Assembly (NCBI GenBank): GCA_963749075.1 | Contig: CAVVLJ010000016.1 | Location: 544,001-608,000, forward strand | Direction: 5' to 3' | DNA length: 64,000 nt | DNA from: an uncultured Pseudomonadota bacterium | GTDB taxonomy: Bacteria; Pseudomonadota; Alphaproteobacteria; JACZXZ01 | Shown: positions 57,557 through 61,994 of the stretch, in pieces | Position numbering within the stretch: the stretch's first letter is position 1 | Layout of the letters: each line of letters begins with the position of its first letter | Notes under the pieces: model-generated | Told to the model about the DNA's origin: nothing | Seen by the model: the letters and a program-made list of their open reading frames with translations, nothing else | The model's database searches: none | Translations under genes and position numbers: made by a program

Positions 57557-58960
57557 ATGGCAAGGATCGAGCGCGCCGAGCGCCGCCCGCCCAAGCCCTC
57601 CGAGGGCGACGTCAACCTCTCGCCGCGGCGCCGGCGCTGGGCCGCGCGCAACATCGACGCCGCGACCCGCGCGCTGCTCGAGGCCGACGAGCGCAATTTC
57701 CTCCGCCAGGCGGTCTCCACACCCTGCCTCGACGCCGTGCGCAAGGCGGAGGGCATCTGGATCGAGGACCTGGCGGGCCGGCGCTACATGGACTTCCACG
57801 GCAACAACGTGCATCACATCGGCTACGGCCATCCCCGCCTCAAGGCGGCGATCGCGCGCCAGATGGACGAGCTGCCCTTCGCCCCGCGGCGCTTCACCTG
57901 CGCCCCCGCGGTCGAGCTCGCGGAGAAGCTCGCGGCGTTGGCACCGGGCGGCCTCACGAAGGCGCTCTTCGCACCCGGCGGCTCAGAGGCCGTCGAGATC
58001 GCCATCAAGATCGCGCGCGCCGCCACGGGCCGCTACAAGACCCTCTCGTTCTGGGACTCCTTCCACGGCGCCGGCTTCGCAGCTGCCAGCGTCGGCGGCG
58101 AGGAGCTCTTCCGCGCAAGTGCCATCGGCCCCCTCATGCCGGGCGCCGAGCACGTGCCGCCCTATAGCTGCTACCGCAATCCCTTCGGTCCCGGCCACAC
58201 GAGCAAGGCCCTCCACAACGAGAGCTGCCGCACCGTCTTCCTCAACATGGTGCGCTATGCGCTCGAGAAGGAGGGCGACATCGCGGCGGTGATCGCCGAG
58301 CCCATCCGCGCCGTGCCCTATCTGCCGCCGCCGGGCTTCTGGCAGGGCGTGCGCGAGGCCTGCGACCGCCACGGCACGCTCCTCATCTTCGACGAGATCC
58401 CGACGGGGCTCGGCAAGACCGGCCGCTTCTTCGCTTGCGAGCATGACGGTGTGGCGCCCGACATCCTGGTGCTCGGCAAGGCGCTCGGCGGCGGCATCCT
58501 GCCGCTCGCGGCCGTCCTGGCACGGCCCGAGCTCGACGTGGGCGAGCGCTACGCCTTCGGCCATTACACCCACGAGAAGAACCCGGTGCTCGCCCGCGCA
58601 GCGCTCGAGACCATCGCCATCATCGAGGAGGAGGGCCTGGTCGAGAACGCGGCGCGCGTGGGGGCACTCGCCCTCGAGCGCATGGCGGCGATGATGGACC
58701 GCCATCCCCTCATCGGCGACGTGCGCGGCCGCGGCCTCCTTCTCGGCATCGAGCTCGTCGAGGACCGCGACAGCAAGGCGCCGGCGAGCGACGCGGCCGA
58801 GGCGGTGCTCTACGCCTCGCTCGAGCGCGGCCTGAGCTTCAAGACCACGATGGGGAACGTGCTGACCCTCACCCCGCCGCTCACCATCAGCGCCGCCGAG
58901 ATGGAGAAGGCGCTCGACATCGTCGAGGCGGCGATCGCGGAGGTGGAGGGGGCGCGCTGA
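57557..58960 (+). CDS. pbfA: Class III PLP enzyme, probably (R)-1-hydroxy-2-aminoethylphosphonate ammonia-lyase
   Basis: SEGDVN N-terminus, DFHGNNVH, WDSFHGA, DEIPTGLG, GHYTHEKN, LSFKTTMG; phnW-phnX context. Confidence 0.78.
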   Translation: MARIERAERRPPKPSEGDVNLSPRRRRWAARNIDAATRALLEADERNFLRQAVSTPCLDAVRKAEGIWIEDLAGRRYMDFHGNNVHHIGYGHPRLKAAIARQMDELPFAPRRFTCAPAVELAEKLAALAPGGLTKALFAPGGSEAVEIAIKIARAATGRYKTLSFWDSFHGAGFAAASVGGEELFRASAIGPLMPGAEHVPPYSCYRNPFGPGHTSKALHNESCRTVFLNMVRYALEKEGDIAAVIAEPIRAVPYLPPPGFWQGVREACDRHGTLLIFDEIPTGLGKTGRFFACEHDGVAPDILVLGKALGGGILPLAAVLARPELDVGERYAFGHYTHEKNPVLARAALETIAIIEEEGLVENAARVGALALERMAAMMDRHPLIGDVRGRGLLLGIELVEDRDSKAPASDAAEAVLYASLERGLSFKTTMGNVLTLTPPLTISAAEMEKALDIVEAAIAEVEGAR

Positions 58961-59116
58961 GGCCAGTGTACGAGGGCGCATATTCACGCCTTGGGCTTGT
59001 TGAGCCGGCCTGCTCAAGGTCCGTTTGACGCCTGACAGCGGCCGGACAGCGAATATCGAGGAAGGTCCAGGTAGTGCCATCGCGCCCGGCCGAAATATCA
59101 GCCGACTTGGAATGCG

Positions 59117-59749
59117 TCACGGGCGGCTTGCTAAGGCCTTCAGCATTGCGGCGCGACCGTCGAGCCACTCGAGTAGATCATCATAGGTCAAGATAGACAA
59201 CTTGGCGCCGCCAACAATTGTGTTTTTGGACCGCCAGTCGAGCCGATGGCGATTGTAGACGGACACCTCGCTACTCCGGCCCACGATAACAAGACCCATT
59301 GACGTGACATGCCTAGCCCCAAAATCGCGTTCCATGACATCGGTACCCGTCTCCCTGTCGATCCGAAACAGCCAGTCGACGACCTGCGAAACACCATGCT
59401 CAACACGTGTCCCCCAGTGAGCGTTTTTGCGCCCCTCCTCTGGCCGAAATAGGCTTGTCGCAGACGCGTCTTCAAATTCGACGAAGAGGAAGGCAGCATC
59501 TTGCAGGTTTCCGGCTATGAGATCGCACACAAAGTCGCCCCAGAGAGGGACCTCCACTTTGACGTGAGTTCCAGTGCTGACCCTATCGACGAGGGTTCCA
59601 AGATACGCGCAAAGTTGCAGATGGGCCTCGAAGAAAGGCAGGAAATGCTTGCGTTCACCGCGAGGATTAGAATTCAGGAATGCACGAAATTCCTCGATTT
59701 CCTTGATCAGAGCTGATGCATCCGGATCAATTTCGGCTACGAGCGGCAT
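59117..59749 (-). CDS. Shedu/DUF4263-like PD-(D/E)xK nuclease, catalytic domain only
   Basis: EVPLWGDFVCDL, FVEFEDA, GVSQVVDW, LVIVGR and ILTYDDLL follow the DUF4263 motif order; lower GC than the flanks. Confidence 0.75.
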   Translation of the reverse strand: MPLVAEIDPDASALIKEIEEFRAFLNSNPRGERKHFLPFFEAHLQLCAYLGTLVDRVSTGTHVKVEVPLWGDFVCDLIAGNLQDAAFLFVEFEDASATSLFRPEEGRKNAHWGTRVEHGVSQVVDWLFRIDRETGTDVMERDFGARHVTSMGLVIVGRSSEVSVYNRHRLDWRSKNTIVGGAKLSILTYDDLLEWLDGRAAMLKALASRP

Positions 59750-60027
59750 CAGCTGGCAGCGCGCTTTTGCCAATATTGCTCTAGTTGATCAGGCCGGGCT
59801 ACGGCAACAACTATGATCTGATTGCCCGCGATCCGCACCAAGGCGCGGAGACGAGAGGTAATTCCTAATTCCCAAAGCTCCTCGCTCCTGGGAATCCGCC
59901 TGAGATTGGTCCGCATTCCGTGGAAATCCTGCGCAAGCTTCCGCAGCATCTCGTCGGTTCGACTTTCATCCGACTCTGGCAGCGTGGACAGCTGCGCCCT
60001 AATCGCACTATTGATCACAAGTTCCAT
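59749..60027 (-). CDS. Small RelE/ParE-fold-like protein (92 aa)
   Basis: MELVINSAIRAQLSTLP...LRRIPRSEELWELGITSRLRALVRIAGNQIIVVAV has a beta-helix-helix-beta3 pattern; strong RBS; TGATG overlap with the downstream nuclease. Confidence 0.6.
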   Translation of the reverse strand: MELVINSAIRAQLSTLPESDESRTDEMLRKLAQDFHGMRTNLRRIPRSEELWELGITSRLRALVRIAGNQIIVVAVARPDQLEQYWQKRAAS

Positions 60028-60454
60028 AGTCTCTCCTTCCTCGCGTTGAGCATGGGCAGAGATGTCAGTTTGCAACCTTCTCAAATGACCTATTCATTTA
60101 TGATACCACGAATTAAATCAACTGCCCCTTGAGCCTTGTTCCGGGGAAGCTATCCTACGGCAACGGAGGGGCAACCACAAAACGCCCCAATGACGTCCTC
60201 GTGCTAACGCCATGGGCGTAGATCAGATCGCGGGCTTCTCCTGATCGAGCGCATCGCATCCAAGACAAGCTCTACTCTGGGCCAATCGCTTCGGTTCCGC
60301 CATGTCGGCGACATGTCCGGTGAGCAAAAAATCCCGCAAACGCCGGTTTGCCATTGAGGGCACCGCGACGGGCCCGAACAAGGTTAGAGGGAACTGTCTT
60401 GCCGTCATTAAGCCAGTGTCGATGGGACTTCGGCGGCGTTTATGAATTCGCGCC

Positions 60455-61994
60455 CTAACCACCCTCCTCGCCGGCGTAGTCCGTGCGCTCGAGGTTGCCG
60501 AAGCGGGTGAGGGCGCCTTCGAACTGCAGGTACACCTTGCCGATCGGCCCGTGGCGCTGCTTGGCGATCGCGACCTCGGCGGTGTTGTGGATTTTCTCGC
60601 CGTGCGCCTGCCAGCGCGCCATGCGGTCGTTGAACTTCTCGTCGCTCTCCTCCTGGCGCTGCTTGGGCTCGGCGCGCTCGTGGTAGTACTCCTCGCGGAA
60701 GATGAACATCACCACGTCCGCGTCCTGCTCGATCGAGCCCGAACTCGCGCAAGTCGGCGAGCTGCGGCCGGCGGTCCTCGCGCTGCTCGACGGCGCGGCT
60801 CAATTGCGAGAGCGCCAGCACCGGCAGATCGAGCTCCTTGGCGAGCGCCTTCAGGCCGCGGGTGATCTCCGAGACCTCCTGCACGCGGTTGTCGCTGCGC
60901 GTCACGCCGCCCGTGTGAAGGAGCTGCAGGTAGTCGACGACGACGAGGCCGAGGCCGTGCTGGCGCTTGAGCCGGCGCGCCCGCGTGCGCAGCTGCGGCA
61001 CGGTCAAGGCCGGCGAGTCGTCGATGAAGAGATGCAGGTGCTGGAGGCGCTGCACCGCCTCGATGAAGCGCGGGAAGTCCTCGCGGCTGACTTCGCCCTG
61101 GCGGATGCGGTCGGAGGGGATCTCGGTCTGCTCGGCGAGGATGCGGTTGGCGAGCTGCTCGGCCGACATCTCGAGCGAGAAAAAGGCGACCTTGGCGCCC
61201 TCGGCGGGCACCATCTTGCCTTCCTCGTCGGCCTCCTCGCGGTAGGCGGCGGCGGCGTTGAAGGCGATGTTGGTGGCGAGCGCCGTCTTCCCCATCGAGG
61301 GCCGGCCCGCGAGGATGACGAGGTCGGAAGCGTGGAGGCCGCCCAGCTTGCGGTCGAGATCCATGAGCCCGGTGGTGACGCCGGTGACGTGGCTCGAGCG
61401 CTTGAACGCGGCCTCGGCGCTGGCGATGGCCTCGGTCATGGCCTCGGCGAGCGGCACGAAGCCGCCCTCGAGTTCGCCCGTCGTGGCGAGCTCGTAGAGG
61501 TTGCGCTCGGCCTCCTCGATCTGCTGCGCCGCGTCCTCCGCGACCGTCATCTCGAAGGCGCGGTTGACGACCTCGGTGCCGAGCTCGATGAGGGCGCGGC
61601 GCAAGTGGAGATCGTGGATGGTGCGGCCGTACTCGCCGGCGTTGATGATGCTGATGGCGCTGGCCTCGAGGCGCGCCAGGTACTTCGATCCGCCCACCTC
61701 GTCGAGCGCGCGGTCCTGCTCGAAGAAGGCCTTGAGCGTGATCGAGTTGGCCAGCTGACCGCGCTCGATGAGGCGGGCGCAGGAGGCGAAGATGCGGCCG
61801 TGCCGCGGGTCGACGAAATGCTCGGGCCGGAGATATTCCGACACCTTCTCGTAGGCTCGGTTGTTGGAGAGCACGGCGCCGAGCAGCGCCATCTCCGCCT
61901 CGGTGTTGTTGGGCGGAGTGCGCAAACCCACCGCCCCCTCGATGCCGACGATGAGCGGCGTGAGGCTGGAACTCTCTTTGGACAGGGTGGCCAT
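60455..61994 (-). CDS. dnaB: Replicative DNA helicase; +1 frameshift at 60742-60743 (probable sequencing error)
   Basis: [26 protein letters not shown]. Removing one base restores [13 protein letters not shown] and AKQRHGP. Confidence 0.95.

Follow-up and report, generated by a model that had tools for sequence, protein, structure and literature searches.

The 64,000-nucleotide stretch of DNA analysed here (the window; positions 544,001 to 608,000 of contig CAVVLJ010000016.1, forward strand, from an uncultured Pseudomonadota bacterium) carries a cassette of two genes that is best explained as a two-subunit Shedu anti-phage nuclease on a small, horizontally acquired piece of DNA. Gene 1 (P0001) is an open reading frame (ORF) of 92 amino acids (aa), and gene 2 (P0002), of 210 aa, lies downstream of it on the same, minus strand. 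Gene 2 is a Shedu nuclease of Type 2, without an N-terminal domain, and gene 1 has, by its predicted structure, a RelE/ParE fold. With slightly better than even confidence we regard the RelE-fold protein as a subunit that binds the nuclease and serves in its regulation or as a sensor, and not as an RNase toxin. An earlier interpretation of the same DNA, made without database searches and referred to below as the sequence-only reading, had raised a separate RelE-fold regulator or sensor as one of its options, and this is now the best-supported reading, given the conserved coupled pair and the complex prediction. It had also called the pair a candidate new defence system, a claim that falls, as a PADLOC SduA model of 211 positions already fits gene 2; what is new is the conserved pairing and the E-x-E-D site within the known Type 2 Shedu. 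The cassette consists of the following features.

59749..60027, minus strand, stop codon included: gene 1, RelE/ParE-fold protein, proposed Shedu-binding partner subunit (ORF, AlphaFold 2 (AF2) model, Foldseek)
59117..59749, minus strand, stop codon included: gene 2, Type 2 (DUF4263-only) Shedu nuclease with an E-x-E-D motif III (Pfam, PADLOC, AF2, Foldseek)
59747..59751, minus strand: TGATG, in which the stop codon TGA of gene 1 and the ATG of gene 2 have one base in common, suggesting translational coupling (read from the sequence)

Gene 2 is a Type 2 Shedu nuclease

Gene 2 is assigned to Type 2 Shedu by hidden Markov models, by fold and by three and a half of four active-site motifs. It matches the Pfam family SduA_C (DUF4263, PF14082) with 67.8 bits against a cut-off of 27 (E 1.6e-18) over residues 34-193 of its 210, and the PADLOC SduA model PDLC00379 over nearly its whole length (E 4.9e-45, with residues 10-200 aligned to model positions 10-201 of 211). 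The AF2 model has a predicted local distance difference test score (pLDDT) of 94.3, and its best Foldseek match is 8ti9_C, the active nuclease-domain octamer of Bacillus cereus Shedu (E 9.3e-07; TM-scores 0.65 for the query, TMq, and 0.72 for the target, TMt), followed by Escherichia coli SduA, 8ps4_A (E 1.4e-06). There is no N-terminal domain and no other noteworthy Pfam or NCBIfam match. Neither gene 2 nor gene 1 has a family in NCBIfam or PHROGs, and searches of the PDB sequences with both proteins and both profiles returned only a chance RRM match and a weak match of the nuclease profile to the C-terminal part of E. coli SduA (E 0.053). The domain-less architecture is shared by the relatives: none of 87 related nucleases (117-234 aa, from a search restricted to 115-368 aa) has an added domain. 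Such relatives are sparse in the phylum sample, being present in two of 401 genomes with the window's own counted.

The active-site motifs of B. cereus Shedu are given as E204, D249, E264-x-K266 and Q295 in the preprint text of Gu et al. (bioRxiv 10.1101/2023.08.10.552793). Gene 2 has E32, D76, E91 and Q122 at the same spacings (44-45, 15 and 31 residues), the correspondence being one of spacing and not of a residue-level structural alignment. Motif III departs from this pattern in that gene 2 has V-E-F-E-D, without the lysine that is K266 in B. cereus and K557 in Vibrio cholerae SduA. In an alignment of 29 nuclease relatives, with identities down to 29%, 22 columns are invariant; these include E32, D76, E93, D94 and Q122, and E91 is kept in at least 90%. 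E93 and D94 are thus present in 29 of 29 sequences, and relatives on plasmids and phages likewise have E-F-E-[DN]. The sequence-only reading had picked out both the DUF4263 motif order without an N-terminal domain and the VEFE in place of ExK, and both are borne out; judged from the alignment, ExE appears to be a fixed trait of the gene 2 clade. PD-(D/E)xK enzymes of the BamHI type, which are similar in having D...E-x-E although they belong to an unrelated family, carry a Glu at the equivalent of the motif Lys, and by this analogy nuclease activity of the E-x-E-D site is plausible. The invariance of the site raises the question of a nuclease chemistry that operates without the motif lysine.

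Gene 1 has a RelE/ParE fold

The AF2 model of gene 1 (pLDDT 89) has the topology beta-alpha-alpha-(alpha)-beta-beta-beta-beta-alpha. Foldseek comparison with the PDB gave ten chains at E <= 0.001, with TMq 0.60-0.77 (0.67-0.77 for the leading matches to RelE, HigB, YoeB and Cami1) and a probability of 1.00 to RelE, HigB, YoeB and YafQ; the ten comprise nine RelE/HigB/YafQ-type superfamily toxins and the RelE domain of Cami1, with YoeB falling just above the cut-off. The best TM match is the Cami1 RelE domain in its ribosome-bound form (TMq 0.77), and the structural neighbours in the atlas are proteins automatically named RelE/ParE toxins. The RelE/ParE likeness suspected from the letters is therefore supported at the level of the predicted fold. 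Gene 1 matches no Pfam family at E <= 10 and nothing in PADLOC. A word-indexed search with gene 1 gave a set of 12 proteins, gene 1 counted, with identities of 40-62%, and the Joint Genome Institute names five of them RelE; among the 12 there are weak Pfam matches to Gp49 (nine), ParE_like (six) and ParE_toxin (three), the best of them 5.4e-06 to ParE_like. Among the more distant partner proteins described below, all Pfam matches fall short of the curated cut-offs, and three of six have no match to the RelE/ParE superfamily at E <= 1. We therefore do not file gene 1 as a RelE, ParE or HigB toxin, since no family threshold is reached and there is no canonical antitoxin.

The family to which gene 1 belongs appears to be small. 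A HMMER search of 1.84 billion representative sequences with the partner profile recovered 53 proteins at E <= 0.001, 18 of them at 1e-10, and none of these 53 (76-163 aa, apart from one of 688 aa) is of a size expected for a fusion of partner and Shedu. The 688-aa protein, P0147, matches the profile weakly (E 7.4e-4) and joins a ParE/RelE-like domain, at its N-terminus, to a UvrD-type helicase. Within the close subfamily of gene 1 there are 21 invariant residues; across 15 aligned partner orthologs there is no invariant column, and only L16 and R61 reach 90%.

The gene pair is conserved

The pair is present in 18 of 18 related loci examined, eight of which were recovered with gene 1 (L001-L008) and ten with the nuclease alone (L011-L017, L027-L029). 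In all eight of the former an SduA homolog begins immediately downstream, at or next to the stop codon of the partner gene; L001 has the sequence of L003, from a Terriglobia metagenome-assembled genome (MAG), and L005-L008 represent one lineage. In all ten of the latter, a small ORF of 84-130 aa lies directly upstream of the nuclease, and wherever both genes are intact they overlap by 4 or 1 nt at the stop and start codons or abut (0 nt). Besides the pair of the window, ten intact pairs were tabulated, all of which overlap by 1 or 4 nt or abut. The TGATG overlap noted in the sequence-only reading, with one base common to both genes, is thus one instance of an arrangement that recurs. The loci found with the nuclease come from six of 13 plasmid records, one of two phage records, one E. 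coli plasmid, one genome and one IMG/VR contig, as follows.

L011: genome from the phylum sample, pair present
L012 and L029: Ri plasmids pRi1724 of R. rhizogenes and pRiO132 of Agrobacterium, pair present
L013: IncFII plasmid of Pantoea agglomerans, pair present
L014: Aliarcobacter plasmid, pair present
L015, L028 and L017: P1-like phage-plasmids of Enterobacter hormaechei, Enterobacter sp. and E. coli, pair present
L016: Vibrio phage PQ189353, pair present
L027: IMG/VR contig, pair present

Pairs thus occur in Alpha- and Gammaproteobacteria, in Campylobacterota and in one Acidobacteriota MAG, as well as in soil metagenomes; the IMG/VR scan and a partner-profile scan of genome contigs yielded one locus each. 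The depositors of the Vibrio phage annotated its two genes as 'RelE-like' and 'Shedu__SduA', and the adjacency has thus already been seen by an annotation pipeline.

In the close loci the identities of partner and nuclease to the window are 62 and 69%, 52 and 70%, and 45 and 59%, and in the distant loci at most 27% for the partner against 28-35% for the nuclease, the partner diverging faster than the nuclease. The distant upstream proteins have only 10-22% identity to P0001 in the alignment, and their relationship to it is seen in profile comparison, where a profile of six distant partners matches the P0001 family profile with hhalign over 86 columns (probability 97%, E 1e-10). The IMG/VR contig (L027) departs from the pattern in that the partner-profile match is limited to the first half of the upstream ORF (probability 55%, E 1.2e-4).

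Two kinds of broken pair were seen. In the E. hormaechei phage-plasmid (L015, 2173-2471) the partner gene is divided between two ORFs that overlap, and the nuclease is intact; the partner is intact in its relatives from E. coli and Enterobacter sp. The opposite is found in four loci, L004, L005, L006 and L008, in which a broken or truncated nuclease gene stands beside an intact partner. The nuclease is truncated in L004; in the other three the damage lies inside the nuclease gene and consists of frameshifts from at least two independent lineages and of a 114-nt deletion. The partner gene is identical in the four contigs L005-L008, and the nuclease lesions differ in three of them (L005, L006 and L008) relative to L007, comprising two 1-nt insertions, one 1-nt deletion and the 114-nt deletion, with one insertion occurring in two contigs. 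These lesions could reflect either real decay of the nuclease or assembly errors.

There is no antitoxin-like ORF that recurs upstream, the gene 5' of gene 1 being different in every related locus examined; the sequence-only reading, which saw no convincing antitoxin ORF upstream in the window, was correct in this respect. The wider contexts are varied. In the P. agglomerans plasmid the pair belongs to the leading region, with an antirestriction gene, DUF1380 and psiB around it; in the Vibrio phage it has replication genes on one side and, on the other, a gene annotated as Gabija GajB_3; and in the P1-like phage-plasmids it is beside ssb and darA. Settings such as the first two are typical for genes of defence or anti-defence that mobile elements carry.

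By contrast, the Shedu of plasmid pO111_1 of E. coli O111:H- (L034/L035, 120783-121583) stands alone, with no partner gene upstream. It is a DUF4263-only protein of 266 aa, flanked by IS1 and ISNCY transposases, with V-E-I-E-K aligned at motif III. This protein could be the one that was tested as a single-gene Type 2 Shedu in PMC12577705. A search of the chromosome of E. coli O103 for the experimentally tested Type 2 Shedu, BAI39103.1, gave no PF14082 match.

A predicted complex of the two proteins

When gene 1 and gene 2 were modelled together, using both alignments, the predicted complex scored 0.89 by the interaction prediction score from aligned errors (ipSAE), with three runs giving 0.86-0.90; the best of three controls, one of which had the nuclease replaced, scored 0.01. 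Of 80 solved complexes, 58 reach the mark used for this score, as do two of 110 mismatched pairs; these counts are rough, as our own alignments were used. Contacts agree between runs by at least 90% and the pLDDT of the partner is at least 84. The predicted contacts of the partner are residues 6-17, 20, 45-48, 51, 53, 61, 63 and 74-87, and those of the nuclease are 9-14, 49-59, 149-153, 167-175 and 183-209; the latter take in both of the extensions outside the Pfam core of 34-193 (9-14 and 194-209). Fifteen of the 21 invariant residues of the close partner family lie inside the predicted contact set (N6, A8, I9, Q12, T15, P17, L51, E53, L63, A75, R78, D80, Q81, L82 and Y85), and six lie outside it (L13, L28, L31, L60, A62 and R65). 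The model supports the view that the partner binds the nuclease.

Genomic setting of the cassette

On one side of the cassette is pbfA (NF049939, 669.6 bits against a cut-off of 525), upstream of which are PhnW and a LysR regulator gene of phn type, and on the other is dnaB (PRK09165, 584.5 bits, cut-off 540); these flanks do not constitute a defence island. The remaining features of the region are as follows.

60031..60038, minus strand: Shine-Dalgarno-like AAGGAGAG, 3 nt 5' of the gene 1 ATG (read from the sequence)
60100..60108, minus strand: candidate extended -10-like TGGTATCAT (TGn + TATCAT), about 73 nt 5' of the gene 1 ATG (read from the sequence)
60336..60351, minus strand: terminator-like hairpin and T-run after dnaB (sequence scan)
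58957..60462: low-GC stretch of about 1.5 kb, inside which are only the two-gene cassette and its flanks (unmatched in 20 relatives; GC profile)

The low GC content that had been noticed by eye is clear in the profile, with values of 0.51-0.57 over 59100-60299 compared to 0.69-0.74 on either side. A 3-kb query spanning the region matches 20 relatives only at its two ends, from 1 to about 657 (the pbfA end) and at 2164-2999 (the dnaB end), and in these relatives the two matches sit on different contigs. The intervening 1.5 kb (58957-60462) has no match in any of the 20, and in one genome of the same genus dnaB is followed by MlaE/MlaF-like genes instead of the cassette. The cassette is therefore strain-specific, foreign-looking DNA, and we conclude that it was horizontally acquired.

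In two soil runs, X1 and X2, there are contigs that match portions of the cassette, none of them extending across all of it. In the same runs, contigs of a related and more abundant strain, with 11-22 differences over the pbfA end, diverge from the window at 58947, immediately ahead of the stop codon of pbfA, and have an unrelated sequence from there on; this is consistent with absence of the cassette from that site in the related strain. A 17-nt imperfect inverted repeat (59012-59028 and 60118-60134, 76% complementary) brackets the cassette and could have arisen by chance.

As to expression, the hairpin at 60336..60351 would part dnaB transcription from the cassette. The extended -10-like motif proposed in the sequence-only reading is present; however, a sigma-70 scan of 58900-60500 that also required a -35 hexamer found no promoter (shuffled sequences gave a mean of 0.5), and the motif at 60100-60108 is therefore only a lead.

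We also note that one extra base near 60742 (within 60716-60745, minus strand) disrupts the dnaB frame of the window. The 528-aa dnaB ORF leaves the frame after 'LADLRE' and the true C-terminus is in another frame; a relative of the same genus has an intact DnaB of 512 aa. Four contigs from soil run X1 lack one letter at 60742 (depth 48 of 91.4), one of which is otherwise the same as the window, and the extra base is likely to be an assembly error or a minority variant.

A model for the pair and its alternatives

In the favoured scenario gene 2 would be the effector, a DNA nuclease of the DUF4263 PD-(D/E)xK type with no fused sensor. Its acidic active site is complete (E32, D76, E91 and E93, together with Q122), with an invariant Glu in place of the Lys. 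Gene 1 would no longer be mainly an mRNA-cleaving toxin. It would be made first and in step with the nuclease, via the 1-nt stop/start overlap, an order that would mean that the nuclease is never made without its partner. Its binding surface would be formed by helix alpha-1, the face of the beta-sheet and the C-terminal helix, and would touch the C-terminal helix and the N-terminal extension of the nuclease. In this way gene 1 would play in trans the role that fused N-terminal domains have in Type 1 Shedu; it may indeed occupy the site of those domains, as the N-terminus of the nuclease, to which a Type 1 linker domain would be joined, is in the predicted interface. Once bound it would restrain the nuclease, or sense infection through a variable surface, or both, and phage or other invading DNA would be cut only after a trigger. 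Residues of about 33-50 are, by way of speculation, a candidate for the sensing surface.

Several observations favour a bound subunit. There is no invariant column among 15 partners, compared to 22 in the nuclease, the residues that are conserved in the close family lie largely at the predicted interface, and nucleases are found broken beside intact partners, and we therefore interpret gene 1 as such a subunit. An intact partner beside a broken nuclease is what would be expected if the partner alone were harmless. Moreover, B. cereus Shedu from which the N-terminal and the linker domains had been removed is highly toxic to E. coli, as described in the preprint text of Gu et al. (10.1101/2023.08.10.552793), and a domain-less Shedu therefore plausibly needs a controller. 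More tentatively, the free-standing RelE-fold protein could be the missing sensor or safety catch of one 'sensor-less' Shedu clade, a former toxin fold with a new role that may keep an ancestral capacity for binding the ribosome or RNA; DNA cleavage by the E-x-E site would in that case be linked to how translation is running or to a phage RNA or protein. Such binding is suggested because the best structural match of gene 1 is a ribosome-bound RelE domain, that of Cami1.

A number of points weigh against a regulatory subunit. Binding is a matter of model confidence, and structures of RelE with antitoxins are abundant, such that docking of a helix on RelE could in part be model memory, although the control in which the nuclease was replaced scored 0.01. 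The predicted contacts touch no active-site residue (32, 76, 91-93 and 122), and any inhibition would therefore be allosteric or act via oligomerisation. With the Lys missing from motif III, nuclease activity of gene 2 is itself a prediction. The residues E53, R61, R65, R78 and Y85 are kept in the close partner subfamily, the window's protein included, in a pattern that we take to be reminiscent of the catalytic sets of RelE and YoeB. If the split of the partner in the E. hormaechei phage-plasmid is real, the nuclease is tolerated without it, and the partner would then not be an essential inhibitor and would act as an activator or sensor; alternatively the split is a sequencing error. Finally, one Type 2 Shedu encoded by a single gene is functional by itself in E. 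coli, according to the available text of PMC12577705, and a partner is therefore no general requirement of Type 2.

An unlikely alternative is an inverted toxin-antitoxin or two-effector arrangement, of the kind that the sequence-only reading had also considered. Here the RelE-fold protein would be an active toxin that works as a ribosome-dependent mRNase or poisons gyrase as ParE does, and the Shedu protein would neutralise it by covering its active-site face; infection, for example engagement of the nuclease on phage DNA, would free the toxin and bring about abortive infection, possibly together with DNA cleavage. The active sites of RelE-type toxins are on the beta-sheet face and the C-terminal helix, which are the surfaces covered in the predicted interface. 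The five candidate catalytic residues kept in the close subfamily, the weak matches to Gp49 (nine of 12) and ParE_like (six of 12) among close relatives, and the lack of a canonical antitoxin gene in the window or at related loci all fit this arrangement, and the RelE-fold gene comes first, as in the higBA/gp49 order described in PMC11980606. However, those positions vary in the distant orthologs, and neither gene 1 nor three of the six distant partners have a RelE/ParE Pfam match at E <= 1, with none at the gathering score. The four loci in which an intact partner accompanies a broken or truncated nuclease would be lethal were the nuclease the sole antidote, and the acidic catalytic residues of the nuclease are all kept invariant, which would be needless in a mere antitoxin. 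The two-effector or atypical toxin-antitoxin option is thus weakened, its RelE-type catalytic positions being not conserved in the family and lying inside the predicted interface.

Quite unlikely is a role mainly as an addiction module of mobile elements, working by post-segregational killing and not in phage defence, in which the Shedu protein would be a stable toxin and the RelE-fold protein a labile antitoxin, stabilising plasmids, phage-plasmids and islets. This overlaps mechanistically with a nuclease held in check by a RelE-fold subunit and differs only in the selected role. The usual layout of type II toxin-antitoxin systems, with inhibitor first, toxin second and translational coupling, is the one seen here. 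The distribution also fits, as the carriers of the pair include conjugative Ri plasmids, the IncFII plasmid (where psiB and an antirestriction gene flank it), P1-like phage-plasmids (where it is next to ssb and darA) and a Vibrio phage, as does the toxicity of Shedu without its N-terminal domains (Gu et al., 10.1101/2023.08.10.552793, preprint text). Against it, the window's cassette is chromosomal and located between housekeeping genes, a DNA-binding domain that could serve in autoregulation is absent from both proteins, experiments show Shedu to be an anti-phage family, and at L015 the partner is split with its nuclease intact. That the two genes are chance or operonic neighbours, a stand-alone Type 2 Shedu behind an orphan, decaying RelE-like gene, is highly improbable: a Type 2 Shedu can act alone (PMC12577705, available text) and that of pO111_1 lies between IS elements without a partner, but the pair occurs in all 18 loci examined, across several phyla and with the stop/start overlap kept, profile homology persists although the partner evolves, and the complex score is 0.89 against 0.01.

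Relationship to known systems

Shedu is treated as a textbook single-protein defence, and the sequence-only reading took it to be a single gene with a nuclease core and fused sensor domains. That description holds for part of the family and is incomplete, as a DUF4263-only class, Type 2, and a two-component KELShedu are both described in the available text of published work. The DUF4263-only proteins number 2,286 of 7,687 Shedu proteins and are considered 'likely constitutively active' in the preprint text of Gu et al. (10.1101/2023.08.10.552793), while in that of Loeff et al. (10.1101/2023.08.10.552762) type II makes up 21% of Shedu systems, with an unclear mechanism that likely involves additional co-factors, 'possibly host-encoded'. 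The domain-less class, 21-30% of all Shedu, is thus left unexplained in the available text of both structural papers. Our pair resembles these Type 2/II proteins in nuclease fold and family, in having no N-terminal domain, in a size of about 210 aa and in fitting the short PADLOC model. It differs in that a dedicated, co-encoded RelE-fold partner is kept where Type 2/II is described as a single gene, and in having E-x-E-D and not E-x-K. The single-gene rule is broken here, with an upstream partner in all 18 loci, such that one widespread domain-less clade comes with a co-translated protein for which binding to the nuclease is predicted; 'Shedu' calls by defence finders miss this second gene in the pair clade. 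The pairing provides a directly testable model for the control of domain-less Shedu, and if the RelE-fold protein is a sensor or safety catch, it would answer how type II Shedu are controlled.

A literature search found no publication linking Shedu or DUF4263 with a RelE/ParE-fold partner, the search covering neither the supplements nor the journal versions of the two structural papers. Shedu and DUF4263 are absent from the main text of the RelE/ParE survey PMC11980606, and in the available portions of PMC9519451 and PMC12065111 the terms Shedu and RelE both occur with no link between them.

KELShedu of E. coli, made up of KELA and KELB, is similar in being bicistronic, with a small first gene (12.6 kDa) and a tiny intergenic gap, and its two proteins form a physical complex in which both genes are needed (PMC12577705, available text). 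It differs in that KELA, a WYL-like SH3 beta-barrel, binds a 38.6-kDa Shedu at its N-terminal domain (PMC12577705, available text), whereas here a partner of RelE/ParE fold is predicted to contact the C-terminal helix of the nuclease domain in a Shedu that lacks an N-terminal domain. KELShedu is thus analogous, and not homologous, to the gene 1 and gene 2 pair.

Type II modules of the HigB/Gp49 kind, in which the toxin comes first, resemble gene 1 in fold, in a size of about 90 aa and in coming first in an operon of two genes. In the present pair, in contrast, no Pfam threshold is reached, the gene downstream encodes a nuclease and not a helix-turn-helix antitoxin, and there is no family-wide catalytic set.

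The closest parallels for the use of the fold in defence, in which a RelE/BECR fold has likewise been recruited, are Cami1 (CARF-RelE) and the BECR domains of PtuZ and NsnC, the latter two described in PMC11980606 and PMC12065111 (available text). In those systems the BECR domain is a presumed RNase effector, fused to or partnered with sensors, whereas gene 1 is a free-standing and probably non-catalytic protein paired with a DNA nuclease. The pair would then be a further example of a toxin fold that has been turned into a regulatory subunit and, if the proposed role is correct, gene 1 would be the first RelE-fold protein to regulate another effector instead of being the effector itself.

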